Source: Bacteroidota bacterium (GTDB lineage Bacteria; Bacteroidota; Bacteroidia; Flavobacteriales; Flavobacteriaceae). From it: DNA of 64,000 bases. The number at the start of each line of letters is the position of its first letter. Within the stretch, counting starts at the first letter, position 1. A program made the position numbers and the translations under genes. The DNA lies in assembly GCA_038529705.1 (NCBI GenBank), contig JBCBDM010000001.1, positions 3,025-67,024 of the forward strand, read 5' to 3'. This document shows, one piece after another, positions 3,397 through 25,632 of the stretch. The notes beneath the pieces were generated by a model. It saw only the letters and a list, made by a program, of their open reading frames with translations. It did no database searches and was not told the DNA's origin.

Positions 3397-4689
3397 TTAT
3401 TCTTTAATAAATTGTTTGGACACCACTTCGGTAGTGGTGAAAATTCGAGCCAGATAGATACCGGAAGGTAAACTAGAAACATCAACTTCCCGACGGTTAG
3501 ATTCTTCGATTACCAACGCTCCTGCAGTGGTGTAAACCTCGATCTCATCGATGGCCTCAGAACTTTGTATACGAATCTGTTGTTTCGCAGGGTTTGGAGA
3601 CAAAGAGAATGCTACCAATGCATTATCATCCACCCCCAGAATGCAGTCCTCACTATACGTGGTGGTTGCGTCCTTACACCAACCTTCCCCTATGGGATCA
3701 ATACACATCTGGCTATTGGCATAGTCTTCATCGTCCACCAAAATACATTGCAGATCCGGATTGTTGAGGGTTGAAATAAAGGTGATGATTCCGCTATTTC
3801 CGTTTTTAATATTGAGTGAGGTAAGTTCGTTGTCTCTCAAAAAAGCTACTTCCAAATTTGGGTTCAACGAGAAGTCCAAATGGGTGAGTAGGTTTTCAAA
3901 CAAAACCACGGTTTCCAGATCAATATTCTGAGAAAAATCGATAGTCCCGGTTAAATCATTGAAGCCCATAAACAAAGTATTGAGTGCTGGATTTTGAGTG
4001 ACATCAATGGTGGTAAGATTACAATTGTTGGCTTCCAGGAAATCCAGTGCCGGATTCGCAGAAACATCCAAGCTTGTCAATGGATTGACACTTACTTCCA
4101 GTGATTCAAGATTGGGGTTTTGAGATACGTCCAAATTGGTTAGTTCATTGACCGCACAATCTAAATAGACCAAATTTGGATTTTGGGTTACATTGAGACT
4201 TGCAAATTCATTACCCCCTACATCCAATAACTCCAGATTCACATTTTGGGTGAGGTTGAGTTGCGTCATATCATTAGACCTTCCAATCAATTCCCTTAAG
4301 CCAGGATTTTGGGTGACATCCACAAAGGCAAAGAAATTGGAACTAAAGTCCAAAACCTCGAGGTTGGACATCTCTGTAACATCTACAATTTGCAAATTAT
4401 TATCGCTACAGTCCAGGATCACTACATTATCGAAGGCCTCGGAGCCCTGCATATCGTTGATGCCAAAATCATTGACATACAAAGCCGTCACTGCCAAGGC
4501 TTCCGAAAGCTGCACCTCTCCATCGTTATTGGTATCCACATCTGTATCGCCTACACCATCATCATTGGTATCCACTACGGGATTATTCACCAAGGCATCC
4601 TTAAAGATAGGGTCAGGGATATTGACGATTTGGGCTTGGACAGCCAAAGAAAGAAAGAAAAGTAGTGTGAGTAGGTAGTATGGTTTCAT
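3397..4689 (-). CDS. T9SS type A cargo, leucine-rich-repeat (internalin-like) protein
   Basis: Signal peptide; DTNNDGEVQ Ca-binding-like motif; about ten LRRs (L..LDV..N..L..L); CTD LSPNPA...SLPSGIYLARI...KQFIKE. Confidence 0.85.
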   Translation of the reverse strand: MKPYYLLTLLFFLSLAVQAQIVNIPDPIFKDALVNNPVVDTNDDGVGDTDVDTNNDGEVQLSEALAVTALYVNDFGINDMQGSEAFDNVVILDCSDNNLQIVDVTEMSNLEVLDFSSNFFAFVDVTQNPGLRELIGRSNDMTQLNLTQNVNLELLDVGGNEFASLNVTQNPNLVYLDCAVNELTNLDVSQNPNLESLEVSVNPLTSLDVSANPALDFLEANNCNLTTIDVTQNPALNTLFMGFNDLTGTIDFSQNIDLETVVLFENLLTHLDFSLNPNLEVAFLRDNELTSLNIKNGNSGIITFISTLNNPDLQCILVDDEDYANSQMCIDPIGEGWCKDATTTYSEDCILGVDDNALVAFSLSPNPAKQQIRIQSSEAIDEIEVYTTAGALVIEESNRREVDVSSLPSGIYLARIFTTTEVVSKQFIKE

Positions 4690-4743
4690 GTATTGTTTGT
4701 TAGGTTATGCCAGATTTGATTAATTATATTCTTTATATTCCAA

Positions 4744-4770
4744 GCACCAGTTACAAACTGGCGCTAGCGC
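4744..4770 (-). repeat. Short hairpin plus palindrome (REP-like element or terminator) downstream of the putative immunity gene
   Basis: Minus strand GCGCCAGT-TTGTA-ACTGGTGC forms an 8-bp stem with one G-U pair; overlaps the perfect palindrome GCGCTAGCGC (4761-4770). Confidence 0.4.
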
Positions 4771-4834
4771 GGGGATACTCATGTTGGTCAGAGATTCAAT
4801 GTACAAAATTTATGTTCTTAAATTACTCCATCAA

Positions 4835-5227
4835 CTAATTTGCAGTGTTAACCCCAAACATATCGTTAAAATTTAATTTGTCATGAATTATTTTGATTTT
4901 TGTTTCCAATATGAAATTATATTCTATCATAATCAATTGTACTGATTTGTCATTTTCACATACTATAACTCTGTGAAAAGTTCTATGAAAAATATTCTCA
5001 ACAGTTGATCGGATTTTTCTTTCAATTCCAAGTTTTTTCAAGTTTTCGCTTGGTGGTAATCTAATTTGACCGTTGCAGACTATACCTTTCCTTTGAGCTT
5101 TCTTAATAGCTTTCTTTAATGTTTTATCGGTTCTGTACGACCAAGAGAAAGATTTGAAATAGATAAAAAAACATAAATACAATATGCTTATTAAAATTAA
5201 TAGGTAAATTATAATTTCTAAGTTCAT
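4835..5227 (-). CDS. Putative cognate immunity protein of the Rhs toxin (membrane-anchored)
   Basis: 130 aa, directly downstream of and overlapping (ATGA) the Rhs stop; very AT-rich (10 G+C in 4861-4920); N-terminal hydrophobic helix. Confidence 0.6.
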   Translation of the reverse strand: MNLEIIIYLLILISILYLCFFIYFKSFSWSYRTDKTLKKAIKKAQRKGIVCNGQIRLPPSENLKKLGIERKIRSTVENIFHRTFHRVIVCENDKSVQLIMIEYNFILETKIKIIHDKLNFNDMFGVNTAN

Positions 5228-8200
5228 CTTCTATTTCTTAAATAAATTCCCCCATTTATGTCAGCTACAAAAAAAGCTCCAATGGAGATTCCACTTCCAA
5301 TTCCAAATAAATTTACATTATTATTCGTGTCTTGACTTGCTTGTATTAATAACATTTTTTCACTCATTGTAGTTGTGCTATTAATTAAAGAATTATCATA
5401 GCGTGTTAAATTATCGACGGTTTCTACCGAAAATCCTGCAAGCACATCATACCCGACTCGGTGAACAAGCCTTTGAGTGTCATCATTTAAATAATAAAGT
5501 TCAGAATTATTTTCAAAACCATCAATTATATTAAATGAAAGGTCCACATCTAAATCAAATAAAACAGCAGAATGATGACCAGCTTCAAACCCTCCAACAC
5601 CTTCAATATCACCTGCAATTTGATTACCAACTGAAAGTCTAATTTGTCCATTAGCGGAAACTTCTAGACTTTCTTTTACTCTTCTCAGCCCATTTTCTCG
5701 AAGTTCATCAGCTGTATCCGAAACAAATTGTTTTGTCTGTTGGTTTTCAATTAATTCTTGCTCAGAATCGGCAAATCCACCGAACGTAAACAGATTCTTA
5801 AAAAAGTTTTTTATAATTCTTCCGTAACATGGCGGATCAGGACAATCCATACCACCATCTGGATCAATTCGTGAAATAGGGTTATTCCCCATCCCAAGAT
5901 AAGGAGAAAAATGTTGTTTTGCCGGATCTGTCGTCAACCATCTTCCCAATCTTGCATCCCAGAGTCGTAACTCAAAGGCCTCCATCCCTGTCTCATCATC
6001 CTTTTCCTGTCCTTGGAAGGCATAACGATATTCCCCTTCCTGATTGCGCTCCGGCATGGGCATCCCAAAGGGATAATAATCCTTATACGCCAGCATGATG
6101 GGGGTATTGTTGGTGGAAATATCGGTAATAACCACATTGTCGATGGTATAGATATTGGTCCAGCTTATAGCGCCATCATTGTTCAAGCCAAAGTATAAGT
6201 TGACCGGGCCTCCCATCAAGGAAGTATATTGAAAGGTAATGCTGCCCCCTTGGGAAGTCACATTGGGGTTTTGAAAGACGGTATTGGTACTCACCCCATA
6301 ACTTAGTGAATTGGCACTTATTAATCCCAGGTCAAAACTAATACTATAGCTTCGGTGGGCCACCGTGTTAAAGGATAGGTAGATCCCATTCTTTGCCTGT
6401 ACACTGGGGACATCGGCTCTTAACTCCTCATTGGTCGCGGTCACATTGGTTCCGGTAAATCCGTGCCAGGGCGGCATGCTCACGATGTTAGAGGCAAAAT
6501 CTTCCTCGTACACGATCTGCGGACTAAAATCCCTCATGATCACCCCGCGTACATTCCCCAGATGGTCGGTAAGCTCATATTTATAGATGCCAGCATCGTC
6601 TCCAACGCCCAAGCGGGAAGCCCCGTAAATTGGAAATTCTAATTCAGAGGTCATACCCGAATCTCCACCGCCATCAGGGTCCAGGGTATGAATAGCCAAT
6701 ACCTGCCCGGATATGTCCCGTACGTAAAAGGTAGAAATGGGATCGTTGTTCGAATCGATGAAGCGCTTTTCCACACGGTGTCCCCGGTCATTATAGTAAA
6801 ATTCCACTCGTTGGGGATCATTGGTAATGGTAGAATACACCGATTTTACCAAACCATTGGTATAGTAGCTATACCCCAACTGATCCTGTACATTTTCTAT
6901 CAACTGACCAATGCTATTGTATACATAGTTCCCGGAATTTTGATCCTTAATATCTCCATTCTCGGCCGTATTCCCTGAGGTATCATCCACATGGCCCAAT
7001 TGATTGCTGTTGGGTAAATAGTTGTACTGTAAATTATCCATGACATTCCCGCCACTGGTATATTCTCTTGTTCTGGTTAAGGACTGAATATTCCCGTTGG
7101 GATCATAGGTCAACCCGGAAACACTAAAATCCGGCGTGGCACCACTGGTGTAGATATTACCATTCACACTCCCAAAGGTAGCAGCACTCAACCACTTGTT
7201 CCCATTGTATTGATATAAATATCCATTTTGAGTGCCAGGGGTATTCAAGCCTTGGGTGGCCCATCGGGTACCTTTGATATTGCCGTCAAACCGATTGTAA
7301 CCACTGGGAGAAGAACCGATGGCTACACTATTTCTAGAGTAGTCCTTTTCGTAATAATCCAGGATCAAGCCGAAGGCGTTGTTGGTATCATTTCCGGGAT
7401 CATTCGCAGAGAGGTCCGAATTGTTGATGGACTTCAATCGCCCGTCCAGGGTATAAACATAATCGATCCCCTGCAGGCCTTGGGCCAAGATGATGCGCTT
7501 CAACTCCCCACTTTTATAATAGGTGTACCGTGCATGTTCCATATAGTTGATATTGTCTCGAGACGTTTCCACAATTTTTAGTTGCCCTATATCATTGTAT
7601 TGGTATTTATGGGTAAAGCGCTCGGTGGCCTCTCCTTTTTGATACAATACTTTGGTCACTTCTCCTGTAGATTCGTCATATTCATAATCGAGGGTCTTTG
7701 CCCCCAGGCCATTCACATGTTGTACGATCCATTCTACACGCCCATATACATCGTAACTATACCAAGTAGTAGTAGTTTCAGGATTCTTTGTATAAGTTTT
7801 AGAGACGTTTCCAGTAAGATGTTGTTGCACGCGCAGTTCTCCCACTCCAAATCCCAGGTTCCCAGGATAGAGCACATCATGAAGCCCTTGGGTATCTTTT
7901 ACGTCATAGACCGTAAAAACCTGTTCTGCGCAGGTAGCCGGGTCCACTACCCAATCGTCAATGGATGGGGGTGCCGGAATAAAATTGGCATCTAGCTCTT
8001 CCAATTGAATGTTGGAAACGACGGAGCCTGTTTGAAATAGCTGTCCATCTATCAAGTAAGAAGGGGTAGTTGCCGCCAAACTCAATGTATAGAAGGTCTG
8101 GTCATTCTTTTTGAAATATACATTCTGCCCAATTCTTTCAATTTGAAATACATCATTCTCGTCATAGATAGTTGCCGACTTAGTAAGGCCTGCCCCGTAG

Positions 8201-10467
8201 TTCATTACATTTACCTGGTTCCATCGAAAGTACATCCCGTACTCAACAGAAGTGTGGTCATTGAAATCCTGTTCTAAGTTTGTTTCAGAAATACCAACGG
8301 TACCTCTACCGTCCTTTGAAAACTGAAAGGATATCCTAAAGTTTCCTGTCCCAGTACCTTCATTAGAAATAAAACCTGAATTATTAGAGGTATTGACGCC
8401 ACTTTTCACCACTTCGCCAGGGGTCGTGGACAATCTACTCTGTACCACAAAGGTGGGAATTGTGGTGCTCAGGGTTTCAAAAAAGGGTAAGCCACTGGTG
8501 CTCACACCGCTCTCTACTGGCCGTCCCAAATCGTCATAATTGGTATATGAAAATTCCTGATCGATCACCTGCTGAGAATTTCTTGAAAACCGGATCTGCC
8601 CATCACTTCTGTAGATGAACTCGGAGCTTCCTTCATCTGGTGATGAGGTATTTGTTAGCTCTCCGGCTCCGTTATAAGTAAAGGTAGTGGCCATAGTATG
8701 GTTGGGAGTTCCTGTTTCTAAATTAAAAGCAGCACTGTCAAAACCCAAGGGTTGGGTAGTAGCGGTTAAACTCCCGGCTTCGTTGTAATAATTGATGGAG
8801 AAATCATAGTAATTCACGTTGTAACGAATTCCTTTTATGGCTCCTCCTACAAGATCCCATTTAATTTGTCCGTCGGATTTAATGTGCGTTTTAGCCTGGT
8901 CGTTGAACGTTCCTCCAGCCCATTCGATCCGGTAGAAATTTCCAGGAGCCATATTACCTGGATTGGATAACTCCAAGCCCGTTCTCAAGTCGTAAACTCG
9001 ATAACCTGACCCGGCTCCTCCAAAAAGCTCATAGCCACCGGAAGCGTTTTGTGGATAATGAATATCCACATATTTTTGCTCCCCGATAAGATATACTACC
9101 TCATAGGAAGTGTTGCCGCCGGACCTTCCTATAGCCAACACTTTTCCTTCGGCATCACTAAAGGAAACCACCTCGTTACCGTGAGCATCCTGGGAAACAG
9201 TTTTATAACTTTTTAGGACCACTTCTTTCCCCAGTCCCGATATGGGACCCTCAAAATAATCCTGTCCAAATAGATAATACAATTCCTGAGCCGCGGGAAA
9301 GGTATAAGAAAATCCCTGAGGATATCTATCGAGGAAACCATCGTCCGCCCCATTTGCATTGGCATCCAGCTCCTTTCCACCCGAGGCTCCTCTAACTCCA
9401 CCTGGGTTTAATTCGTCGTAAATGGTGCGTGTGTAGGGTCTGTCCTCAGCCACATCCTGATAGGATTCCAGGGTATTGGACTCTCCGTAGTACCAGTTCA
9501 GGGTTCCGGGAAGCGGAGTCCCATCCAATAAGGGAGGATTCTCCGGATCTGCATTGAGCTGGGCCTTGGTAAGGCCATGATCATTCTCGTGTGTGATAAA
9601 ATTACTCTTATAAGAAAAATGCTCCGGTGTTCCCTCCAACGGTGCGCTAAAGGTTTGAAGCGCGGGTCTCCCTTGATAATCGTATCTAGTCTCGGAAACC
9701 CAGGTTTTATTGGTTTCATAGTCTTTGGTCTGTGATTGAGTCCCTTTCCCAAGGCGATCAAAATAATTGATCGAGGCTCCCTTTAAGGTGCCCGAATTGT
9801 CGTAGGTCTTTGCCCGAATCCAATTTCTGCTCACATCTACGGCAACCACATTCGAGTTGGCAGCCACCCCTTTAAAACCGGAATTATTGAGCGTAAATGA
9901 GAAGTTATCCGAACTGGTATACAGCGCCACTTTCCCGTTCTCCATAAAATTATCCGTGATAAGATGCTCGGTAGTATTATACGTTAATAACAGCTTATTA
10001 TTCTCTGTTTTCTCGATTCGAAAGATATCACTGGTATTGGGAGTGATATCGTTCAATCGATCGATCTCTCCCTCAGGGCCGTGGAATACAACGGCATATT
10101 TGGTTACACTGGATTCCAGATAGGGTTCCAAGGTTATGGAATAACTATTTTGATGCACGCTGGCCAGACTAAAATTGTTCTCGAACGTAAAATACATTGA
10201 AAATGTATTAAGTTCAGATTGAACGCTTAAGCTACTATTGTTGAGCATGAGACTCGTAATTTCAATAAAGCCTGTATCTATCGAATATAGCTCATCTTGC
10301 GACAACATATAGGCATTGGCATTTTGACTTAGATCACTCTCAATGGCCCCAGTTTCCGGAATCACCTGAAACGCTGTGTTCTCCTTCCAGGTCAATTGCT
10401 GACCCTGGAGAATTCCAAAATTGAACAAGATTAGATATGCTAGAGATTTTAATAGGAATGATTTCAT
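5224..10467 (-). CDS. Rhs/YD-repeat protein with Rhs-associated core and polymorphic C-terminal domain (putative toxin)
   Basis: Sec signal peptide; YD repeats; YELTDHLGNVR; core YRYAFQGQEKDDETGMEAFELRLWDARLGRWLTTDP...PYLGMGNNPISRIDPDG; ~209-aa AT-rich C-terminal domain. Confidence 0.9.
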   Translation of the reverse strand: MKSFLLKSLAYLILFNFGILQGQQLTWKENTAFQVIPETGAIESDLSQNANAYMLSQDELYSIDTGFIEITSLMLNNSSLSVQSELNTFSMYFTFENNFSLASVHQNSYSITLEPYLESSVTKYAVVFHGPEGEIDRLNDITPNTSDIFRIEKTENNKLLLTYNTTEHLITDNFMENGKVALYTSSDNFSFTLNNSGFKGVAANSNVVAVDVSRNWIRAKTYDNSGTLKGASINYFDRLGKGTQSQTKDYETNKTWVSETRYDYQGRPALQTFSAPLEGTPEHFSYKSNFITHENDHGLTKAQLNADPENPPLLDGTPLPGTLNWYYGESNTLESYQDVAEDRPYTRTIYDELNPGGVRGASGGKELDANANGADDGFLDRYPQGFSYTFPAAQELYYLFGQDYFEGPISGLGKEVVLKSYKTVSQDAHGNEVVSFSDAEGKVLAIGRSGGNTSYEVVYLIGEQKYVDIHYPQNASGGYELFGGAGSGYRVYDLRTGLELSNPGNMAPGNFYRIEWAGGTFNDQAKTHIKSDGQIKWDLVGGAIKGIRYNVNYYDFSINYYNEAGSLTATTQPLGFDSAAFNLETGTPNHTMATTFTYNGAGELTNTSSPDEGSSEFIYRSDGQIRFSRNSQQVIDQEFSYTNYDDLGRPVESGVSTSGLPFFETLSTTIPTFVVQSRLSTTPGEVVKSGVNTSNNSGFISNEGTGTGNFRISFQFSKDGRGTVGISETNLEQDFNDHTSVEYGMYFRWNQVNVMNYGAGLTKSATIYDENDVFQIERIGQNVYFKKNDQTFYTLSLAATTPSYLIDGQLFQTGSVVSNIQLEELDANFIPAPPSIDDWVVDPATCAEQVFTVYDVKDTQGLHDVLYPGNLGFGVGELRVQQHLTGNVSKTYTKNPETTTTWYSYDVYGRVEWIVQHVNGLGAKTLDYEYDESTGEVTKVLYQKGEATERFTHKYQYNDIGQLKIVETSRDNINYMEHARYTYYKSGELKRIILAQGLQGIDYVYTLDGRLKSINNSDLSANDPGNDTNNAFGLILDYYEKDYSRNSVAIGSSPSGYNRFDGNIKGTRWATQGLNTPGTQNGYLYQYNGNKWLSAATFGSVNGNIYTSGATPDFSVSGLTYDPNGNIQSLTRTREYTSGGNVMDNLQYNYLPNSNQLGHVDDTSGNTAENGDIKDQNSGNYVYNSIGQLIENVQDQLGYSYYTNGLVKSVYSTITNDPQRVEFYYNDRGHRVEKRFIDSNNDPISTFYVRDISGQVLAIHTLDPDGGGDSGMTSELEFPIYGASRLGVGDDAGIYKYELTDHLGNVRGVIMRDFSPQIVYEEDFASNIVSMPPWHGFTGTNVTATNEELRADVPSVQAKNGIYLSFNTVAHRSYSISFDLGLISANSLSYGVSTNTVFQNPNVTSQGGSITFQYTSLMGGPVNLYFGLNNDGAISWTNIYTIDNVVITDISTNNTPIMLAYKDYYPFGMPMPERNQEGEYRYAFQGQEKDDETGMEAFELRLWDARLGRWLTTDPAKQHFSPYLGMGNNPISRIDPDGGMDCPDPPCYGRIIKNFFKNLFTFGGFADSEQELIENQQTKQFVSDTADELRENGLRRVKESLEVSANGQIRLSVGNQIAGDIEGVGGFEAGHHSAVLFDLDVDLSFNIIDGFENNSELYYLNDDTQRLVHRVGYDVLAGFSVETVDNLTRYDNSLINSTTTMSEKMLLIQASQDTNNNVNLFGIGSGISIGAFFVADINGGIYLRNRR

Positions 10468-16352: not shown

Positions 16353-16964
16353 TCATATATCAAATTGCAACATGGGCTCATCTTTTATTTTGCGCACGCT
16401 CATCTTGAATTTCACTTCTCCGGTTTTCACTCCGATATCCTCTATAGACAAGGTTAGTTCTCCATTGTCTTTGACTACTTCGTCCCTGGGAAACACAAGT
16501 AACATGGATGTAGCATGGGTCATTCCATACATCCTAGGATATACATAGTCTTTCATGTTTATAGTATCTTTATTTTTATTGTAGAGGTGTATTTTTTGGT
16601 CCATTCCGAAGGACAATTGATTCACCATAGCGCCAAACTCGTGTCTATTGCTGGGAACAGCACTTAAAAGCTCCCTACCATTTTTAGACAGACTTAAATT
16701 GAAGTAGACATTCTCTTGATAGAATGCACGTAATGAATCTATACTAGCCTTTGTAGAAACGCCCTCTAATTCTTGAATGACCGTAAGATCAACAGGCCGA
16801 TACATCAAAGAAATCTCCACCCCATTCACTTGCTTCTTTTGCAGATATCCGTTCTCAGGATCGCTGATATAGGATAGTAGTTCTTCTTTGGTATCAAAGC
16901 TCTTTTGCTGACAACCTGTAGCGAAAATGGCTAGTACAAATAAAATCAAATAGGCTCCCCTCAT
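16353..16964 (-). CDS. Hypothetical lipoprotein co-transcribed with the Rhs genes
   Basis: Probable start MRGAYLILFVLAIFATGC (lipobox) at 16964, 7 bp after the ompH stop; the ORF-track extension to 17072 overlaps ompH and is unlikely. Confidence 0.7.
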   Translation of the reverse strand: MRGAYLILFVLAIFATGCQQKSFDTKEELLSYISDPENGYLQKKQVNGVEISLMYRPVDLTVIQELEGVSTKASIDSLRAFYQENVYFNLSLSKNGRELLSAVPSNRHEFGAMVNQLSFGMDQKIHLYNKNKDTINMKDYVYPRMYGMTHATSMLLVFPRDEVVKDNGELTLSIEDIGVKTGEVKFKMSVRKIKDEPMLQFDI

Positions 16965-16971
16965 ATTCAAT

Positions 16972-17505
16972 CTATTTGGCGTTGAATTCTTTGTTGAGAC
17001 CCTCCAAGACCTCATCGGTGAGATCGGAGACATCGTCTGCATACATGATATTGCCCCCACCGCTAGCACCAAAAATCACTTTGTAATTGTGCTTTTTCCC
17101 ATACTCCTTTACAAAGTCGTTGATGTCATTCACTACCGTTTGGGTAGCCTTTTGGTCTTCCTCCTGGATTTGCTTTTGGATAGCCTGTTGGTATTGGCCA
17201 ATTTGCTGCTGTTTGTTGCTCAGCAATTCCTGCTTCAACTCCAGCTCTTTTTTAGTCATGGATGCCCGTTCTTTTTCGTAGGTCTTTAGTTCTTCCTGCC
17301 AATTCCCTATCAAACTATCCACATTGGCTTGCAGTTGTTGCGCCTTAGTTTCGAACTTGGATTTTTCCACTTTGGTACGCGCATATCCGTCCACCAATTT
17401 GTTGACGTCTACGTATACGAGTTCTGAAGAGGATTGGAAGTAAAAAAAAGAAAAAACGGTAGCTGCTAAGGCTAAAATTGAAACGGGTAATGCTAGTTTA
17501 TTCAT
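16972..17505 (-). CDS. ompH: OmpH/Skp family periplasmic chaperone
   Basis: YVDVNKL motif, long Gln/Lys/Glu coiled coil, C-terminal YKVIFG...IMYAD...DLTDEVLEGLN; probable start MNKLAL at 17505. Confidence 0.85.
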   Translation of the reverse strand: MNKLALPVSILALAATVFSFFYFQSSSELVYVDVNKLVDGYARTKVEKSKFETKAQQLQANVDSLIGNWQEELKTYEKERASMTKKELELKQELLSNKQQQIGQYQQAIQKQIQEEDQKATQTVVNDINDFVKEYGKKHNYKVIFGASGGGNIMYADDVSDLTDEVLEGLNKEFNAK

Positions 17506-17538
17506 GGATGTATTTATATAGTTCACCTGCGCCTTCAA

Positions 17539-17558
17539 TCTGAAAATCTGATTTCAGA
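17539..17558. promoter_or_regulatory. Inverted repeat in the divergent promoter region
   Basis: TCTGAAA-N6-TTTCAGA. Confidence 0.3.
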
Positions 17559-17638
17559 AATCCTCGCAAGTCGTTGAAAATCTTGAACTAAACTAGACCA
17601 TTTGTTTGGAAATAAAGGCAAAAAAAAAGCGGTTGAAA

Positions 17639-17658
17639 TCGCAATTCATGAATTGCGA
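17639..17658. promoter_or_regulatory. Perfect 20-bp palindrome, candidate operator of the divergent Rhs and T2SS-like operons
   Basis: TCGCAATTCATGAATTGCGA is its own reverse complement and lies between the ompH and pilin starts. Confidence 0.5.
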
Positions 17659-17763
17659 CTTGTAAATTTTGGAGTAAAAAATTGTCCTTCAATCGCTTAG
17701 AACAAAAAAATGCTGAAACCCCAAAATTTGGATTTTCGAAGGCTTAAAATCTTACTTTTAAGT

Positions 17764-18183
17764 ATGAACATTTATAGGAGAAAACCACTAAAAAAAGTTC
17801 CGGCCTACACCATGGCCGAAGTACTTTTTGCACTCGCCATTATCGGAATAGCTGTCTCCATTGCCATTCCCATTTTTTCACCGGCTACAACCAAAGCCAA
17901 GGCCACGGAAGCCCAATTACAACTGAAGCATATTCACAACCTTCAAACACAATTCCGCTATGTGCGGTCCAAATACTCTATGGATTTCTATGAAATTGAT
18001 TTTGAAGCCCCCAAAACCGTCAAAGAAGAGGGTTTTGCCAATTATCGATACGAAATCATCCAGGCCTCGACTACCTCCTTCAAGGCGAGAGCAGAAGCCG
18101 TAGTGGATTTCGACGGAGACGGGATCGTTAACATTTGGGAGATCGATGAAAATGGTGTTCCTAAAGAAATTACCAAAGATTGA
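17764..18183 (+). CDS. Type IV pilin/major pseudopilin (GspG/PulG-like)
   Basis: KKVPA|YTMAEVLFALAIIGIAVSIAIP: class III signal peptide with Glu+5; C-terminal DFDGDG motif; probable start at 17764 (ORF track begins 17710). Confidence 0.85.
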   Translation: MNIYRRKPLKKVPAYTMAEVLFALAIIGIAVSIAIPIFSPATTKAKATEAQLQLKHIHNLQTQFRYVRSKYSMDFYEIDFEAPKTVKEEGFANYRYEIIQASTTSFKARAEAVVDFDGDGIVNIWEIDENGVPKEITKD

Positions 18184-18674
18184 TCTGGACCCTTATTAAA
18201 ATAGTACTCATGGGGACACTGGGAATTATCGGTGTACAGGACCTTAAAGAGAGACAGGTCTGGGCTTTTCTGTTTCCATTATTTGGCGTACTGGGAGCGG
18301 TACTATTCTATCCGAAGGTGACTCCGGCTTTTTTTTGGCTCTCCATTGTCATCAATCTAGGGTTGGTAATCGTGATATTGTTGATCAATTTCATAGTAGC
18401 ACGATATATTCTGAAAAAGAATCTATTCAAAGAGGCCATGGGCCTGGGAGATGTGTTGTTCTTTATGGGATTTGCGATCTCCTTTCCCACACTAACCTTT
18501 ATCAACCTATTTGTTTTCTCCATCCTATTCACCCTTGTCTTTCATTATGTCCTTACATTTTTGAATCGGTCAGTCCTCGCCACCATTCCCCTGGCCGGAT
18601 GTATGTCCTTGTTTTTAACAACCATCTATCTCATCCACTGGACGGGATTTTATGACCCATTATATTTTCTGTAA
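18180..18674 (+). CDS. Prepilin peptidase A24-like (short, peptidase domain only)
   Basis: Multi-TM; catalytic Asp motifs QDLKER and MGLGD; overlaps the pilin stop. Confidence 0.75.
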   Translation: MIWTLIKIVLMGTLGIIGVQDLKERQVWAFLFPLFGVLGAVLFYPKVTPAFFWLSIVINLGLVIVILLINFIVARYILKKNLFKEAMGLGDVLFFMGFAISFPTLTFINLFVFSILFTLVFHYVLTFLNRSVLATIPLAGCMSLFLTTIYLIHWTGFYDPLYFL

Positions 18675-20075
18675 ATGCAATCATTTGAAATACCCACATC
18701 TCTAAAACAACTCATTAGCTCCAATCAGGCTTTTCACTACCGGATCGTCCCAATGGAAAAAAAGGGAGATGTGGTGGTTTTTAAAACCGATGCCGAACAT
18801 CCGGAACTCTTGCATTCTGAATTATCCATTGTTTTCAACTTCACTCCCGAACTCCAACATGACTCTTCAGAAAACATTCAGGCTTACCTTATATATAACT
18901 ATCGTCAAACCACCACCGCTCTGGGTGGAATTTCGGAAGCTACCTTCCTGGAAGAATTACTACAGACCGCCAAAGACTTCAATAGCAGTGACATTCATCT
19001 GGAACCTTATGAAACTCTCTGCCGTGTTCGGTTTCGCCTGGATGGCAAACTCAAAGAACACTATCAAATCTCCCTGAACCAGTATCCAAAGATCATTAAT
19101 ATCATTAAACACAGGGCAGAACTGGACGTATCCCAGAAAAGGCTTCCACAAGATGGAAGGATAACGGTAAAAGGAGTGGACGATGATTTCGATATCCGGG
19201 TCTCAACCATGCCTTCATTGCATGGCGAAAAGATCGTTCTTAGGATTCTCAAGCAAGACGCGACGGGAGTGGAATTAAAAAACCTCGGATTCAAAGAGCG
19301 TGAATTGAAATTGTACCTGGAGGGCATCAAGATGACTACCGGTATTATTCTCATATCGGGACCCACTGGTTCGGGTAAAACCACCACATTGTATGGAACG
19401 CTCAAGCTATTGAACAGCGAGGAGAAAAATATCCTTACCGTTGAAGACCCCATAGAGTATACTTTAGATGGGGTAAATCAAGTACAACTCAAGGAGGATA
19501 TCGGCTTGGACTTTCCAAGAACCCTCCGAACGTTCCTTCGGCAGGATCCCAATGTGATCATGGTAGGAGAAATCCGGGATAGAGACACAGCAGACATGGC
19601 TATTCGGGCGGCTTTAACCGGGCATCTGGTATTGTCTACCATTCACACCAATTCCGCTTGGGCTACAGTCTCCAGACTTATCGACATGGGAGTACCTCCT
19701 TTTCTGGTAGCCAGCACCCTAAAATTAAGTGTAGCCCAACGGTTGGTTCGAAAGCTATGTGATCATTGTAAACGAATGGAGCCTGTTACCGAAAACCTAT
19801 TTCCGGAGAGCTTTTCAGAAAAAAAAATGATCCCACAACACTATGTATCCGTGGGCTGTAACCAATGTCATTTTACCGGATATAGCGGACGAAAAGCCTT
19901 GTATGAGATCATCCCTGTTCGGGCCGAATTGGAGCAGGCCATCAAGCGCAATGCCTTGCAGATAGATGATTATTTGATCGAAAATGACCTGGGGACGCTT
20001 CAAAGCAACGCCATAGATATGATTATCAAGGGCGAAACCACAGTAGACGAAGTTTATTCGCTATTGACAAACTAA
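18675..20075 (+). CDS. gspE: GspE/PilB family secretion ATPase
   Basis: Walker A GPTGSGKTT, Asp box TVEDPIEY, LRQDPNVIMVGEIRD, His box STIHTNSA, tetracysteine CDHC..CNQC. Confidence 0.95.
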   Translation: MQSFEIPTSLKQLISSNQAFHYRIVPMEKKGDVVVFKTDAEHPELLHSELSIVFNFTPELQHDSSENIQAYLIYNYRQTTTALGGISEATFLEELLQTAKDFNSSDIHLEPYETLCRVRFRLDGKLKEHYQISLNQYPKIINIIKHRAELDVSQKRLPQDGRITVKGVDDDFDIRVSTMPSLHGEKIVLRILKQDATGVELKNLGFKERELKLYLEGIKMTTGIILISGPTGSGKTTTLYGTLKLLNSEEKNILTVEDPIEYTLDGVNQVQLKEDIGLDFPRTLRTFLRQDPNVIMVGEIRDRDTADMAIRAALTGHLVLSTIHTNSAWATVSRLIDMGVPPFLVASTLKLSVAQRLVRKLCDHCKRMEPVTENLFPESFSEKKMIPQHYVSVGCNQCHFTGYSGRKALYEIIPVRAELEQAIKRNALQIDDYLIENDLGTLQSNAIDMIIKGETTVDEVYSLLTN

Positions 20076-20082
20076 CTAACAC

Positions 20083-22206
20083 ATGAAAAAAACAATATAC
20101 GTTCTTCTACTCCTATTTCTATGCCATGGGAAGGTTTTCTCCCAGGACCTCAATTCCAGGGTACATACACTTCAAAATCAACTGGACATTCTAAAAATTG
20201 AAACGCCCGGACTGGACGAAACTATTAATATCAATATTACACAAACCACACTTTCTAACTTTCTTCTGGCCATAGCCAAAGTTCATAATTTGAACATCAA
20301 TGTTTCTCCTGAACTTAACAGCACAAATATTGTCAATAATTTCTCGGATGTCTCTGTTAGCGACATCCTTATTTTTTTAGTCAAAGAATACGACCTTGAT
20401 ATCGATTTTACAGGAAATATTCTTTCTATCAAAAAGTACATTCCTCCCAGACAGGAGCCTAAGGAAAAACCGATCACTATGGCCTATTCATTGTCCAACC
20501 AAAGTTTGAGCCTCGACTTGAAAGGGGACCCTCTGGACAAAGTAGTTAGAAAGATCATGGATGAGACCGGGAAAAACCTGTTATATACCCCAGATCTGGA
20601 AGGGACTCCTCTTACTATTTATATCAATAACGTTCCCTTGGATGTTGCTCTGAACAAAATGGCAGAATCCAACAACCTCCTAATGGACAAGACCCAGGAC
20701 GGTTTCTATACGTTCGAGTCGGCGTTGGTACAAAACACTACCTCCTCTTCGGGAACTCCCACTGCCAGTCGTACCATTCGAAGGAGAAAGAACAACTTTA
20801 ATTATACGATATTGGACACCCTTGCAAAAAAGGTTACGGTCCATCTGCAAAATACGCCCATAGCCGATGTGGTCTATACACTGGGCGAAGACCTTAAATT
20901 AGATATTTTCACGGCCTCTCCACTGGACAAGGCCGGAGTGGCCAATGTAGATGCCAAAGACATTCATTTCGATATCCTTCTGAATAAATTATTTCAGAGT
21001 AGTTCCAGTGCCACCTCAAACGGAAATTCCAATAACCCCGCATCCTCTGGTTCCAATTTCACCTATAAAAAAGAGGGCAATGTGTATTACTTTGGAACGG
21101 AAGACCAATTATCCCTCAAGCAGGTAGAGCTAGTCACTATGATGCACAGGTCTATTCAGCTTTTGGACGATCCCTCCGGAGGTGGGCAACGTAGGGCCGG
21201 AAGAAATAACTTCACTTCCGGAACTACCAATTTCTACAATAGTGGCGGCAATTTCAATCAAAATCAAAATTCGGGAAGAACCAATAATTCCGGAAATTCT
21301 AATACCTCTGGCAATGTATCATCCATTGAAGATATCATTCCGGAGGATATTAAAGCGGGCTTAGATATTAAAATAGACCCAGAGCTTAACAGTTTCGTTA
21401 TCAGCGGCCCGGGGGTTAAAGTAGAACGCTTTAAAGAGTTTATCACTTTTATAGATAAACCCGTGCCTGTCATTTTAATCGAAGTGATGATCCTGGAGGT
21501 AAACCGAAGTGCCATTACCGAAACGGGGGTTTCTTTCGGAATTGGAGACAGGCCAGTTCAGACCCGCGGTGAATTCTTCCCCAATGGAAATGTGACCATA
21601 GGGGCAACGGATGTCAATAAAATAATCGGAAATTTCGACGGTTTCGGAGCCCTCAACATTGGCCGGGTAGTCCCTAATTTTTACCTAGACATTAAGGCCA
21701 TGGAAGCTGCCGGAACTCTAAAAGTAAAGTCTACTCCCAAGTTGGCTACCATCAACGGACACAAGGCTTTTTTGTCCAGCGGGGAAACAACATATTACGC
21801 AGTGACCAGTCAGAATTTTTTCGGATCGCAAATCCCCCAAACCTCGGAAATTAGAAACTATGTTCCCATCGATGCAGAGCTCTCCCTTGAAATTTTACCC
21901 TTTGTTTCGGGTAACGGACAGATCACCTTAGATGTGCAGGTGCTTCAATCGGCTTTCAACGGAGAACGTGTGGCAGAAGACGCCCCACCCGGTATTACCA
22001 GTAGGGAGTTCTCCTCTATAGTTCGAATGGAAGATGAAGATATCGTGGTTCTGGGAGGAATAGAATCCATACGAAAGGACAATTCTGGCTCAGGAGTTCC
22101 TTTTTTGGCAAGAATTCCGGTGATCAAATGGCTATTCAGTAAGCGCAGGCGAGAGGCTTCCAAGCGAAACTTAACCATTCTTATTAAACCTACCATCATA
22201 GAGTAA
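20083..22206 (+). CDS. gspD: Secretin (GspD/PilQ family)
   Basis: Signal peptide; N3-like region followed by IDKPVPVILIEVMILEV; C-terminal secretin motif IVVLGG...SGVPFLARIPVIKWLF. Confidence 0.92.
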   Translation: MKKTIYVLLLLFLCHGKVFSQDLNSRVHTLQNQLDILKIETPGLDETININITQTTLSNFLLAIAKVHNLNINVSPELNSTNIVNNFSDVSVSDILIFLVKEYDLDIDFTGNILSIKKYIPPRQEPKEKPITMAYSLSNQSLSLDLKGDPLDKVVRKIMDETGKNLLYTPDLEGTPLTIYINNVPLDVALNKMAESNNLLMDKTQDGFYTFESALVQNTTSSSGTPTASRTIRRRKNNFNYTILDTLAKKVTVHLQNTPIADVVYTLGEDLKLDIFTASPLDKAGVANVDAKDIHFDILLNKLFQSSSSATSNGNSNNPASSGSNFTYKKEGNVYYFGTEDQLSLKQVELVTMMHRSIQLLDDPSGGGQRRAGRNNFTSGTTNFYNSGGNFNQNQNSGRTNNSGNSNTSGNVSSIEDIIPEDIKAGLDIKIDPELNSFVISGPGVKVERFKEFITFIDKPVPVILIEVMILEVNRSAITETGVSFGIGDRPVQTRGEFFPNGNVTIGATDVNKIIGNFDGFGALNIGRVVPNFYLDIKAMEAAGTLKVKSTPKLATINGHKAFLSSGETTYYAVTSQNFFGSQIPQTSEIRNYVPIDAELSLEILPFVSGNGQITLDVQVLQSAFNGERVAEDAPPGITSREFSSIVRMEDEDIVVLGGIESIRKDNSGSGVPFLARIPVIKWLFSKRRREASKRNLTILIKPTIIE

Positions 22207-23417
22207 TGTTAAATAGATTGCTGTCTTACATATCCTATGGCTCCTCCTTTTGCGGGATAGAAGTGAACACTTTCGATGCAAGTGATCAATTCTTTGCAAT
22301 TACCGCTGAAAAAAGGAAACAGGAATTTGAAAAATTCGACTTTTATAAGGAAGATTCGTTGGCTGCCCTGTCTCAAAAGGTCGGCAAAAACCGTCACGCT
22401 TTTTTGATCATCAACACCGATAAGGTATTAGTAAAGGAAGTCGCTTCAAGCTTTGACCAGAAAAATGCACTCGCCCATGCCTTTCCTGGTCTATCTTCAT
22501 CAGAATTCTTCTTCGAAGTGGTGAAATTCTCCGAAAAGACATTTGTCGCTGTATGCCGTAAAGAGGAGGTGGAGTCCATTATCCGCAAAGCCGAAGTCAA
22601 CCATTTCCATGTACTGGGGTTTCATCTAGGCTTTACCTCTTTGAAGGCCCTCTTACCAAGCTTGAGTTACGACGAATTGCCTACACAACGATTCTCCATT
22701 ACCCTGGAGAATCAAGAAATTGGATCGTTTTCCCTCAACCAGGAAAATGAGCATTTATTCTGCCATATTCAGGGCGTTGAGATTCATTCCCACCATATTC
22801 TGGCTCTATCCGGGCTTACAGGGCCCTTAACCAACAGTAAGGAACTATTGGGCAATACCACAGCGACTTCTGTCGATTTAAAAAAGCTCTTTCTGGAAAA
22901 AGCTTTCTTCCGGAATGGACTAAAACTGGCCGTTACCCTGCTACTGGTCATCGTCATGGGCAACTTATTTTTTTTCAATCAATTCAGAAAAAAATATCAA
23001 CAATTGGACGCTGAAGCCTCTTTGATTTCTACTCAGCAGCGTACCATAAAAACAAAGACCGAGACCCTAGAATTAAAAGAGAGTATTGTAAAGAATATTC
23101 TGAATAGCGATCACTCCAAAAGTTCATTTTTTATCAATAGGCTAGTATCCGGAAAACCCCCTTCCGTTGTATTCTCCGAAATTCATTATCAGCCCCTGGA
23201 AAGAAACCCCCGGCCGGATAAGGCCATTCAATATCGAAAAGGGACCATCGTTTTATCCGGGGAAAGCGGAAGCAAGGAAGCCTTTTCTCAATGGATAGAG
23301 ACGTTGGAAGCAGAGGATTGGATTTTGGAGGTGACCATCTTAGACTATGGAATGGCTCAAACAACTCGAGATCTCTTTCACATTAATCTAAAGCTCAATG
23401 AAGACTCCAAGAAATAA
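22206..23417 (+). CDS. PilM/PilN- or GspL-like assembly platform protein
   Basis: N-terminal cytoplasmic domain, one TM (LAVTLLLVIVMGNLFFF), coiled coil, PilN-like C-terminus (IVLSGES..FSQWIETLE..WI); coupled to gspD. Confidence 0.6.
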   Translation: MLNRLLSYISYGSSFCGIEVNTFDASDQFFAITAEKRKQEFEKFDFYKEDSLAALSQKVGKNRHAFLIINTDKVLVKEVASSFDQKNALAHAFPGLSSSEFFFEVVKFSEKTFVAVCRKEEVESIIRKAEVNHFHVLGFHLGFTSLKALLPSLSYDELPTQRFSITLENQEIGSFSLNQENEHLFCHIQGVEIHSHHILALSGLTGPLTNSKELLGNTTATSVDLKKLFLEKAFFRNGLKLAVTLLLVIVMGNLFFFNQFRKKYQQLDAEASLISTQQRTIKTKTETLELKESIVKNILNSDHSKSSFFINRLVSGKPPSVVFSEIHYQPLERNPRPDKAIQYRKGTIVLSGESGSKEAFSQWIETLEAEDWILEVTILDYGMAQTTRDLFHINLKLNEDSKK

Positions 23418-23940
23418 GAATATAGTACTGATTGTAGGGTTTATCATTGTACTGTTATTGTCCTACAGATTCGTCCTCTCCAAAACGATCTTCCTGAAAA
23501 ATGAGATCTCCAAACTCGAGCAGCATCTTGTTAGTTCGGAAGATTTGGCCCACATCGCCCTACAGCTTGACCAGCGCGAGAAATTTATAGATTCTGTACT
23601 TCAGAAGAACAATCTAAAGCACCTATCCATCCAAAATAATTTACTGGAATTTTTAAACCGTGAAGCACGGGAGGGCACCTTCCAAATCACGCAGTTTACG
23701 GAGCCACATCGATCTGTTGAAAATGAAGTAACCACTACTTCGTATCGGTTTACCCTCAGAGGGTCTTTTCTCGCTTGCGAACAGATTATCTATCAACTTG
23801 AACAAGCATATAATTTCGGAAAAATTACTCATTTGAAGTTCGAGAAAAAACGAGACTTCCGGAAAGGGAAGGACTACCTGGAATGTAATGTGATCATAGA
23901 AAGTTTTGTTTCTCTACAAAGAGTGAGGGCACTAGATTAA
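23398..23940 (+). CDS. PilO/GspM-like protein
   Basis: N-terminal TM, coiled coil, ferredoxin-like C-terminus (FTLRGSF...IYQLEQ); overlaps the previous gene. Confidence 0.6.
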   Translation: MKTPRNKNIVLIVGFIIVLLLSYRFVLSKTIFLKNEISKLEQHLVSSEDLAHIALQLDQREKFIDSVLQKNNLKHLSIQNNLLEFLNREAREGTFQITQFTEPHRSVENEVTTTSYRFTLRGSFLACEQIIYQLEQAYNFGKITHLKFEKKRDFRKGKDYLECNVIIESFVSLQRVRALD

Positions 23941-25620
23941 ATCCGTAGTGGATTTTTCCAATTGTTTGATATAATAAGACGGATAGATCCCAAACTTCTT
24001 ATAAAAGGCCTTTGAGAAATACTCGCTCGATCCAAAACCACTTTCTTCGGCGATGGCCTTTACCGAATACTTTCTGAAGGTCTCATCCTCTTTGAGACGT
24101 TTGGCGCTTGCACTTACTCTTAGATCGTTGACGTAGGCGTTGAAATTCATCTGTTTTTCGGTATTGATCACTTTAGAAAGATAATTGGCGTTGGTCTTAA
24201 GCCTCTTGGCTAGAGTTTGCAAGGTGATCTTTCTGGACAAATATCCCCGATCTTCTTCAAATTGCCTTAAATTCTCTGATATCTTGGCCCAAACATCTTC
24301 GGAGATCGACCGATCTCTTTTGTCAACTCCAGTGATGGGTTCCTGTTTGGTTTCTTCCAAATCCAGTAACAAGCGCTCAAAACGCTTTTTGTAGATCCTT
24401 CTTTGCGTAACGAAATACCCCAGGCCGAAGAAACTAAAAATAAGTACACTCAGAATCCATTTGATGCGCTTGGTTCCATCCATATTTTTCGACTCCAATA
24501 CCGCAATTAGTTGTTCTTTCTCTTCCAATAGGAGAGGGATCACATATTCTTTGTTCGTTTTCTCCTTAACATACTTTTCCTTTTCTCTGATAAGACTATC
24601 CACTACCAGAAGGTCTGTTAAATACTGTAATTGAAGCTCCAGCTTCCCTTCTTTCTGGTAATGGTCTTTCAAAGTTTTATAGACCATGGCCAACTCCGGA
24701 TATACAACGTTATCCTTTTTATAAGTAGAATCGATCTCACTGAACATCTTAATTCCTTGCTCCTGTCTCCCTTGTTTTAAGTAGATACTTCCTATATAAT
24801 AAGGGTAGGTGGAATAATCCCCGTGGTCCCTTTTACCATGGTACCCTTTATTCAAACTATCCAAAGCCGCTTCATAATCGCCTTTAAAATACATGGCACA
24901 ACCCGATCGCTCCACCAAATTGAAGTAAAATTCATATTCATTTCGATCCAACGCAACTTCAATAGCCTTTTTAAAGAAAAACAAGGCCGAGTCTGGTTTC
25001 TTTAATCTTACATATGATGTCCCAATACCACTTAAAGTATGCATGTATGATCTTTCTCGAGACTTGCGAATATCCGGATGGTTCTCCCATAATTCTATTT
25101 TAACGAACTCGGCATCTAAAGCTTCACGATGATTTCCCCACAAGTTATTTATGGCAGAAATTAAGTCAAGCCCAATTACCTGATACAAAACATTCTCTTT
25201 TGCCCGGGCACTTTCAAATGCCTTGATGGCGCTATTTAAACCTTCTTCGTATTGATCGTAGTAATAGTAGTAATAGGCCTTAAAAGCGTAGGGTGCTGCC
25301 GGATAATTCTTGTGGATACTATTTCTAGATAAATAGATAGCCGAATCTAAATATACAAGAGCCTGTTCATATTCAGAGACATTAGACATACGTTCATAGG
25401 CTCGTGCCATTTTCGTGCTATCGAGATCTCTTTCAGCCTTTTTTAAGTATGTACGAGCTATTCGCGTTGCAGCCACTGTGTCTTTTTTATTCTTATCGAA
25501 CAAGCTAATAAGTGAATCATAGCTTTGAACCCTGAGATAGGATTCTGAATAATGCTGTCCATAAGTCAGAGCAATTGACAACCTAAATATCCCCACAAAT
25601 AAAAAAGCTCTAAGAAACAT
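23932..25620 (-). CDS. Membrane-spanning TPR-AraC transcriptional regulator (paralog 1)
   Basis: Signal-like N-terminus, TPR-like helices, TM, AraC HTH (LAKRLKTNANYLSKVIN...IAEESGFGSSEYFSKAFYKKFGIYPS). Confidence 0.9.
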   Translation of the reverse strand: MFLRAFLFVGIFRLSIALTYGQHYSESYLRVQSYDSLISLFDKNKKDTVAATRIARTYLKKAERDLDSTKMARAYERMSNVSEYEQALVYLDSAIYLSRNSIHKNYPAAPYAFKAYYYYYYDQYEEGLNSAIKAFESARAKENVLYQVIGLDLISAINNLWGNHREALDAEFVKIELWENHPDIRKSRERSYMHTLSGIGTSYVRLKKPDSALFFFKKAIEVALDRNEYEFYFNLVERSGCAMYFKGDYEAALDSLNKGYHGKRDHGDYSTYPYYIGSIYLKQGRQEQGIKMFSEIDSTYKKDNVVYPELAMVYKTLKDHYQKEGKLELQLQYLTDLLVVDSLIREKEKYVKEKTNKEYVIPLLLEEKEQLIAVLESKNMDGTKRIKWILSVLIFSFFGLGYFVTQRRIYKKRFERLLLDLEETKQEPITGVDKRDRSISEDVWAKISENLRQFEEDRGYLSRKITLQTLAKRLKTNANYLSKVINTEKQMNFNAYVNDLRVSASAKRLKEDETFRKYSVKAIAEESGFGSSEYFSKAFYKKFGIYPSYYIKQLEKSTTDLI

Positions 25621-25632
25621 ATGTTAAATATA

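Follow-up and report, generated by a model that had tools for sequence, protein, structure and literature searches.

The window analysed here, a stretch of 64,000 nucleotides of contig JBCBDM010000001.1 from a member of the Flavobacteriaceae (assembly GCA_038529705.1), carries on its minus strand a gene for an Rhs protein of 1747 amino acids (aa). Its last 209 residues form a C-terminal tip (CT), which is followed by a small overlapping gene, P0002. Our analysis concerns this AT-rich pair, the cassette at positions 4835-5853: its origin, the family to which the tip belongs, and the manner in which the tip and its partner may act. The following features, in which TM stands for transmembrane, LRR for leucine-rich repeat, T9SS for type IX secretion system and AF2 for AlphaFold2, define the locus:

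5224-10467, minus strand: Rhs open reading frame, encoding 1747 aa
5854-10467, minus strand: Rhs/YD shell (aa 1-1538), with signal peptide, weak DUF6443 match and YD repeats, homologous to Rhs bodies at syntenic loci of congeners
5854-6078, minus strand: Rhs-associated core (aa 1464-1538), TIGR03696
5854-5865, minus strand: DPDG motif, codons read directly
5692-5853, minus strand: CT residues 1-54, the linker, which is variable and contains a CxDxPxC stretch, an amphipathic helix rich in Phe and a second helix
5227-5691, minus strand: CT residues 55-209, a conserved domain predicted to be all-beta, from alignments, AF2 and analysis of strand faces
4835-5227, minus strand: candidate immunity gene P0002 (130 aa, pI 9.7, net charge +10), overlapping the Rhs stop
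5156-5215, minus strand: predicted TM helix of P0002, about aa 5-24, from hydrophobicity and flank charges
4800-5850, no strand: AT-rich tract of the same extent as the CT and immunity genes, with a G+C of 0.23-0.40 in each 100 bp
4690-4834, no strand: spacer between the cassette and the gene for an LRR protein with a T9SS C-terminal domain, G+C back at about 0.39-0.47

Two family models bear out the Rhs identity that a first-pass annotation of the window had given to the large protein: TIGR03696, the Rhs-associated core, matches aa 1464-1538 with 58.7 bits (cut-off 32.5), and the YD-repeat model TIGR01643 matches with 25.5 bits (cut-off 15.8). Pfam adds a weak match to DUF6443 and nothing else, and a literature search on DUF6443 found no paper. 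The N-terminus is a Sec-type signal peptide that begins MKSFLLKSLAYLILFNFGILQGQ. The core ends in ...GMGNNPISRIDPDG (NNPISRIDPDG), the next residue being G, and this DPDG-bearing end is the presumed site of both autoproteolysis and recombination. The motif and the domain behind it lie exactly where the annotation had placed them, with 209 residues (window 5227-5853) following DPDG. The host genome contains this one Rhs core only.

The cassette departs sharply from its surroundings in base composition. Over its 1019 bp the G+C content is 0.310 (CT 0.338, immunity gene 0.265), against 0.447 in the Rhs body and 0.421 in the genome. When all segments of 1019 bp in the 3.72-Mb assembly were taken as reference (0.421 +/- 0.026, standard deviation), this value corresponded to z = -4.2, and 0.02% of the segments were as low; the drop is far beyond chance. 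At third codon positions the Rhs body has a G+C of 0.47, as against 0.18 for the CT and 0.27 for the immunity gene. The drop starts no more than about 100 bp from the DPDG codons and stops at the stop codon of the 130-aa gene, and the spot counts from which the AT-richness had originally been noted are exact (19/60 at 5221-5280 and 10/60 at 4861-4920, versus 27/60 at 6481-6540). The spacer at 4690-4834 contains neither a second cassette nor an orphan core end, and a terminator scan scored nothing in it.

The history of the tip was read from the 20 kb surrounding three Rhs homologues of the same genus (G213:C30, G212:C17 and G213:C63). The first two loci retain the full order of OmpH, lipoprotein, a YD partner of about 1900 aa and Rhs, and the third has the YD partner and Rhs up to its contig end; in G212, the two genes that lie downstream at the window locus are retained as well, along with the beginning of the divergent pilin-peptidase operon. 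Because gene order is kept, these G213 and G212 loci are orthologous to that of the window. The Rhs bodies of the congeners are 46-55% identical overall to the window Rhs, and over the last 85 core residues five relatives have 64-72 identical positions of 83-85 (80-85%); past DPDGG, the same five have 2-4 identical of 24-31 aligned residues (15% or less). tblastn searches of the congener loci with the CT and with the 130-aa protein gave no match to either, and the tips found there are unrelated to the window tip and to one another, none of them bearing a Pfam family. As identity collapses directly after DPDGG at syntenic loci, the tip has been exchanged, which agrees with its original description as probably swapped; an invariant CT among relatives had been named as the observation that would speak against a swap, and at the orthologous loci the tips differ. 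We conclude that 4835-5853 is very probably a horizontally acquired toxin/immunity cassette, swapped by recombination onto a conserved core end. The protein combines YD repeats, the TIGR03696 core and a DPxG motif followed by a variable tip with polymorphism of the tip at orthologous loci and its joint movement with the downstream gene. The cassette belongs to the known Rhs polymorphic-toxin class, while the family of the tip itself is undescribed.

The congener loci offered some observations of their own. The G212:C17 orthologue (L007 / L026) has after DPDGG a distinct, unannotated tip of 235 aa that is Gly-rich and beta-looking and ends in ...GATLGINYKLDYEWKF; kinship of the window CT with it was rejected (hhalign probability 0.1%), and it could represent a second, independent beta-type tip at the same locus. 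In G213:C63 (L015 / L027) the tip after DLDGG has no Pfam match and holds HEVLHGWQH, an HExxH motif that makes it a probable metallopeptidase toxin. The LRR protein with a T9SS sorting domain (window 3397-4689) has a 45%-identical homologue in G213 (L025 17852-19015) on the opposite strand relative to Rhs, and the LRR gene is absent at the G212 locus; these differences in position and strand indicate that the region just downstream of the tip has been rearranged among congeners.

An exhaustive phmmer search with the 209-aa CT over 1.84 billion representative proteins yielded three matches (E 2e-10 to 7e-6), 28-33% identical to the window CT. P0003 is an orphan of 302 aa that still bears a core end (...NNPISIIDPTGG, 80% identical to that of the window); its gene belongs to an array that comes after an IS110 transposase and a larger Rhs gene interrupted by a scaffold gap. 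P0004 is a full Rhs protein of 1598 aa with MAM and DUF6443 and a different type of core end, and P0005 is an orphan of 183 aa, encoded in 'Flavobacteriaceae bacterium M23B6Z8' among small unannotated genes that form a long array on one strand. A profile search of a collection of 5.8 billion clusters added only P0006, a fragment near P0004. No further CT homologue was found in 200 genera of the family or 400 genomes of the order, or by pattern scans of genome contigs and metagenome contigs. A Logan contig (L024, SRR22824321) is 100% identical to window 4870-6026 and represents DNA of the same organism, not an extra member; its positions 1151-1180, at the contig end, repeat the 30 nt of window 4818-4847 in inverted orientation, in all likelihood an artefact of folding back during assembly, and give rise to a false 123-aa variant of the immunity protein (P0011). 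The occurrence of the domain on two scaffolds and in two orphan arrays identifies it as a mobile Rhs tip. With about 5 sequences among about 15 billion proteins, the 209-aa tip founds a tiny, undescribed and exceptionally rare family, and such rarity implies a small ecological weight.

Scans of Pfam, NCBIfam and PADLOC with four members of the CT family (E of 10 or less) returned no family, including every Ntox, T9SS sorting, outer-membrane protein (OMP) and ADP-ribosyltransferase (ART) model, and the partner protein likewise matched no family in these libraries; sub-threshold noise consisted of GH32 C-terminal, MINDY, VPS13 and Pom. Searched by sequence and by profile, the PDB gave nothing below E = 0.78. 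The initial reading that no nuclease, deaminase or ART motif is present stands, since no such family matched, nor any other, and so does the description as an uncharacterised toxin family, to which a mere three to four homologues could be added. Individual kinships were also examined and rejected. A T9SS C-terminal sorting domain is contradicted by the lack of matches to Por_Secre_tail (PF18962) or to the NCBIfam type A/B models and by the different tips of orthologues; an eight-stranded outer-membrane barrel (OMP_b-brl / OmpA-like) by the lack of any HMM match and by TM-scores of 0.2 or less. The last CT strand has no aromatic beta-signal, G-I-[FY]-L being followed by 4-8 polar residues. hhalign gave a probability of 0.9% for kinship with the window's own OMP and of 1.5% for kinship with the Gly/Ser strand array of the 1936-aa YD partner, and no relation was seen between the downstream OMP genes of the two cassettes, that of the window and that of L019. 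A reading as an R-S-E ART would place R72, S95-A-V and S-V-E144 at the aligned positions; it fails because neither STS nor [QE]xE (ExE) occurs there, and the fold is predicted to be all-beta with no ART family matching.

The partner gene overlaps the Rhs stop by ATGA (4 nt) and its product has an N-terminal TM helix, both as first reported; one strong segment covers aa 5-23, with a mean Kyte-Doolittle value of 2.8. On its N side the helix is flanked by MNLE (uncharged to acidic) and on its C side by 9 Lys/Arg in 26 residues, and the same pattern of flanking charges recurs in P0007, P0010 and P0013. According to the positive-inside rule a basic flank stays cytoplasmic, from which P0002 is predicted to be oriented N-out/C-in, with a basic domain of about 100 aa at the cytoplasmic face of the inner membrane. 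What had been described as a membrane immunity protein is in fact TM-anchored, and the description needs amending in that a tethered soluble domain facing the cytoplasm is predicted, not an integral multi-pass protein.

Proteins of the same design follow CT homologues elsewhere, on the other Rhs scaffold as well as in an orphan array, P0007 as the directly adjacent gene (L019) and P0010 as the second gene (L018), so that a small basic TM partner follows the CT in three of four loci, the window included. By BLASTP, P0002 matches P0007 with E = 2e-6 and P0007 matches P0010 with E = 4e-4. Because TM helices inflate similarity scores, the soluble part of P0002 was re-tested by itself against an HMM built from those of the other three partners; it aligned end-to-end with 11.1 bits and was outscored by 5 of 2000 shuffles (empirical p about 0.003). 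P0013, which is 50% identical to P0007, is encoded on a metagenomic contig (L020 4991-5359) in a housekeeping context, between genes for an MFS transporter and a metallophosphatase; it stands there by itself, no Rhs gene lies near it, and it has the look of an orphan immunity gene. Charge is complementary throughout, the partners being basic with pI values of 9.2-9.7 and the CTs acidic with values of 4.5-5.6. The immunity function originally assigned is supported by co-occurrence only, in the form of a weakly homologous partner at three of four loci and one orphan copy, and P0002 is probably the cognate immunity protein.

Turning to the tip itself, the amphipathic helix of the variable linker, rich in Phe, reads IIKNFFKNLFTFGGF, and P0003 and P0004 have Phe-rich stretches like it. 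The helical hydrophobic moment is high at CT residues 7-23, and the helix could be a membrane-docking element. The Gly-rich hydrophobic strands that had been noted at the end of the domain are present as the string LFGIGSGISIGAFFVADINGGIYL. Members of the family are 26-30% identical to one another, and the four-sequence alignment has as its invariant positions, in CT numbering, R72, S74, G76, Q78, A80, S95, L98, D111, R132, G140, E144, N178, G184 and G192. The window CT has a pI of 4.5, a net charge of -14 and 30 Asp+Glu. When run with this alignment, AF2 modelled the whole CT as two helices (10-23 and 39-62) followed by strands only, a model too poor for use (mean pLDDT 44.5, pTM 0.37). Trimmed to CT residues 55-209, the prediction improved to a mean pLDDT of 69.6 and a pTM of 0.54 and consisted of strands only, in a meander (62-83, 87-108, 112-121, 126-137, 139-150, 156-167, 171-175 and 180-208), the first two forming a 22-residue hairpin. 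Both runs agree on an all-beta meander.

The predicted strands are two-faced. In the four longest, one face has a mean Kyte-Doolittle value of +1.7 to +1.95 and the opposite face one of -0.7 to -2.0. Invariant residues are found at 11 of 60 polar-face positions (R72, S74, G76, Q78, A80, L98, R132, G140, E144, G184 and G192) and at 3 of 59 hydrophobic-face positions (Fisher p = 0.04, four sequences); across the same four sequences the hydrophobic faces keep their hydrophobicity and vary in residue identity. Soluble proteins usually conserve their core, and the combination of a variable hydrophobic face with a conserved polar face is that of a lipid-exposed barrel with a water-filled lumen. Drawn from four sequences, this 'inside-out' conservation is only suggestive of such a barrel.

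The Rhs gene belongs to an operon in which OmpH/Skp, a lipoprotein and the 1936-aa YD protein precede it, and both YD proteins appear to be Sec-exported. This operon faces a divergent one comprising a prepilin-peptidase-like gene, an ATPase of the type II secretion system (T2SS-E) and a secretin (window 16353-23940), the first two genes of which are again adjacent to the OmpH-to-Rhs order in G212 (L026 17507-19966). The secretin/T2SS-like operon may be a dedicated export route for a two-chain YD cocoon; signal-peptide RHS toxins of Bacteroidetes have been classed as 'T2SS' exported (Zhang et al. 2012, PMC3482391). A type VI secretion system (T6SS) sheath gene (TssC, PF05943) was not found in the assembly, which is 92% complete. 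The Por_Secre_tail on the LRR neighbour of the cassette indicates that the organism uses a T9SS. Just past the secretin operon, at window 23932-27309, lie two tandem paralogous genes for TPR + AraC-type regulators (562 and 558 aa).

Taken as a whole, the locus is best explained, in our tentative judgement, as a swapped cassette with a membrane-inserting beta tip; a membrane-inserting or ionophoric mechanism as such is possible, and we put it forward with slightly more reserve. The Rhs shell would enclose the tip and probably release it through autoproteolysis of the core at DPDG. The amphipathic Phe-rich helix would then dock the tip on the inner membrane of the target. Once inserted there, singly or as oligomers, the two-faced hairpins could form a beta pore that is lined with acidic residues and probably conducts cations. 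Such a pore would collapse the membrane potential and would in this function resemble Ntox25 and Tse4, ionophores predicted to be beta barrels. Protection of the producer would fall to P0002, the TM helix of which would hold the basic domain of about 100 aa at the cytoplasmic face of the inner membrane; from there the domain could bind and block the acidic toxin (pI 4.5). The early suggestion that the toxin is possibly membrane-acting keeps this conditional standing, and is consistent with the all-beta two-faced strands, the 'inside-out' conservation, the amphipathic helix and the partner predicted to be tethered to the inner membrane. A bolder version, which we regard as unlikely, would make the tip the founder of a new class of pore toxin, with beta hairpins that insert by themselves and with no relation to Ntox25 and Tse4, in which the helix docks, four long two-faced strands per protomer build an oligomeric, acid-lined cation pore, immunity is tethered on the cytoplasmic side, and delivery is Sec-dependent and T6SS-independent, by a two-chain YD cocoon exported through the secretin system. 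In the literature cited here we found no description of tethered immunity on the cytoplasmic side against pore-forming bacterial toxins.

A number of results weigh against a membrane-inserting tip with P0002 as its antidote. The AF2 prediction has only moderate confidence, and the five models of the trimmed run, obtained from the four-sequence alignment, disagree (69.6, 55, 33, 31 and 25), for which reason they are used here at the level of secondary structure only. Foldseek searches of the PDB with both models, a check recommended at first pass, gave no neighbour with E < 1e-3 (best E = 8e-3, TM 0.3 or less); by this test the domain has no solved counterpart. The non-significant lists are filled with long-hairpin or membrane beta structures (the secretin InvG, OmpA, Ail, OmpX, OmpT and NalP), a point in favour of the proposed tip, and also with soluble meander barrels (dirigent proteins, lipocalins and GFP). 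The central strands (CT 112-175) have only weakly hydrophobic faces, and these, together with the acidity of the domain, would suit a soluble beta protein no less than a membrane one, while the invariant R/S/Q/D/R/E/N residues could equally form an active site. None of the four members matches Ntox25 (PF15530) at E of 10 or less, and at the position of the Ntox25 FGPY motif the window CT reads VGNQ, only P0004 and P0006 having FGPQ there; PF15530 was also not found in the host genome or in 400 Bacteroidota genomes, a search that says little because the control genomes were likewise without a match. For a Sec-exported Rhs protein without a T6SS, a route to the inner membrane of the target is not evident. 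On the side of the partner, the homology of the P0002 soluble domain to those of the other partners appears weak but supported, the small partner is absent in L017, where a PsbP-like lipoprotein follows the CT homologue instead, and a homologue of that lipoprotein intervenes between the CT and P0010 in L018. These lipoprotein-type genes (L017 8562-9317 and L018 9853-10569) encode proteins of about 240-250 aa that are 29% identical (E = 2e-19) and have a faint PsbP/Mog1-like match; the L017 copy has a lipoprotein signal, and the window contains no homologue. As a PsbP-like protein follows the CT in both loci, the family may have two kinds of protective protein, and the PsbP-like one may be an alternative or a second, periplasmic immunity protein.

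The main rival explanation, which we consider rather unlikely, is an enzymatic one: the CT would be soluble, would have a new fold rich in beta structure and would act in the cytoplasm or at the inner leaflet, for example on a nucleotide, lipid carrier or protein, with R72, S74, Q78, S95, D111, R132, E144 and N178 as its active site and with P0002 as an inhibitor of that site that happens to be tethered. The 14 invariant positions are mostly polar or charged, the domain is acidic, rich in Asn/Asp/Ser and not lipophilic overall, its central strands are weakly amphipathic, and the immunity domain is predicted to face the cytoplasm; moreover, enzymes make up the majority of the Rhs and CDI tips characterised so far (PMC11630599, PMC3482391). 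On the other side, none of the four members matched an enzyme family, even at E of 10 or less, and the PDB gave no profile hit; predicted hairpins of 22 residues and Gly-lined faces are unusual in soluble enzymes, conservation lies on polar strand faces and not in loops or the core, and the ART reading fails.

Two further explanations take the tip out of interbacterial antagonism. That the payload is aimed at eukaryotes (protists, algae or invertebrates) in the manner of Tc-type TcB/TcC cocoons, the small gene encoding an accessory or unrelated membrane protein, would suit an operon with two YD proteins (1936 aa and 1747 aa), both apparently Sec-exported, and a genome in which no T6SS sheath gene was found. 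It is nevertheless quite improbable, since a partner that co-varies with the CT in three of four loci, complements it in charge, starts within or next to its stop codon and has an orphan copy elsewhere shows hallmarks of antibacterial immunity, and since orphan CT/immunity arrays, a typical feature of interbacterial Rhs loci, are the setting of two CT relatives. Least credible of all, and very improbable, is the explanation that the domain is no toxin and serves in sorting or anchoring, as a T9SS C-terminal domain or as a beta-barrel anchor in the outer membrane. The organism has a T9SS, the domain is beta-rich and C-terminal, and OmpA, Ail and OmpT appear among the weak Foldseek rows; but no T9SS or OMP model matches any member, the terminal aromatic beta-signal is missing, similarity to OMPs in TM-score is as low as stated above, and the domain has its own partner gene and foreign composition. 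It also stands after the Rhs cleavage motif, and orthologues have unrelated sequence in its place, whereas a sorting signal would be expected to persist among them.

In Rhs tips there is a reservoir of new antibacterial activities; the present tip has a compact domain of 155 aa, predicted to be all-beta, and its partner is very small. Recognition of non-enzymatic membrane toxins built from beta structure is recent, and the barrels of Ntox25 and Tse4 are known from predicted structures only. If the proposed membrane depolarisation is correct, an independent family would be added to this group, and Sec-exported Rhs proteins of Flavobacteriaceae would be shown to carry membrane-acting payloads; an immunity domain tethered so as to face the cytoplasm would also tell on which side of the membrane the toxin is vulnerable. 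Should the tip turn out to be an enzyme, it would constitute a new pair of fold and activity.

Compared with Rhs polymorphic toxins in general (PMC3482391; Tse5, PMC10684867), the window system is alike in its YD shell, its core ending in DPxG, its variable tip, the adjacent immunity gene, the orphan tip/immunity arrays of relatives and the foreign composition. It differs in having a Sec signal peptide and a weak DUF6443 match in place of PAAR, VgrG or prePAAR, in being paired with a 1936-aa YD partner beside a secretin/T2SS-like operon, and in the undescribed family of its tip. Among pore formers, Tse5 demonstrates that an Rhs shell can carry such a payload (PMC9637101, PMC10684867), and a pore-forming, depolarising toxin inside an Rhs shell, as established for Tse5-CT, is what we propose for the window tip. 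No sequence relation between the two was detected. Tse5 is delivered by a T6SS via a PAAR-like N-terminus; for the window tip, a helical linker followed by strands only is predicted. Ntox23 (PMC3482391) is likewise an all-beta tip on Bacteroidetes RHS proteins with signal peptides, and is linked to TcdB/TcaC; its listed motifs (ND, DxxR and H) are not among the invariants of the window family, which include no His.

The functional parallel proposed is with Ntox25 and Tse4. Ntox25 tips of CdiA (PF15530) depolarise target membranes, having first been taken for RNases (Halvorsen et al., PMC11630599), and AF2 models both Ntox25 and the T6SS effector Tse4 as tapered beta barrels (PMC11630599). Tse4 forms ion-selective channels, and its immunity protein Tsi4 is located with it in the inner membrane (PMC12169545); the immunity protein of the alpha-helical EC93 ionophore is also membrane-localised (PMC11630599). 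With Ntox25 (CdiA-CT2 of E. coli EC93) and Tse4 the window tip would share a mostly or entirely beta fold, the lack of an enzyme signature, a membrane-associated immunity protein and a proposed non-enzymatic action on the inner membrane, and the families are divergent to a similar degree (26-30% identity in the window family, 29-39% reported for Ntox25). The window CT is told apart from Ntox25 by HMM and motif, having no PF15530 match and no FGPY (PMC3482391), and from both toxins by its strong acidity and its carriage on Rhs, not on CdiA or Hcp. Their immunity proteins differ as well from P0002, which is predicted to consist of a single TM helix and a cytoplasmic domain.

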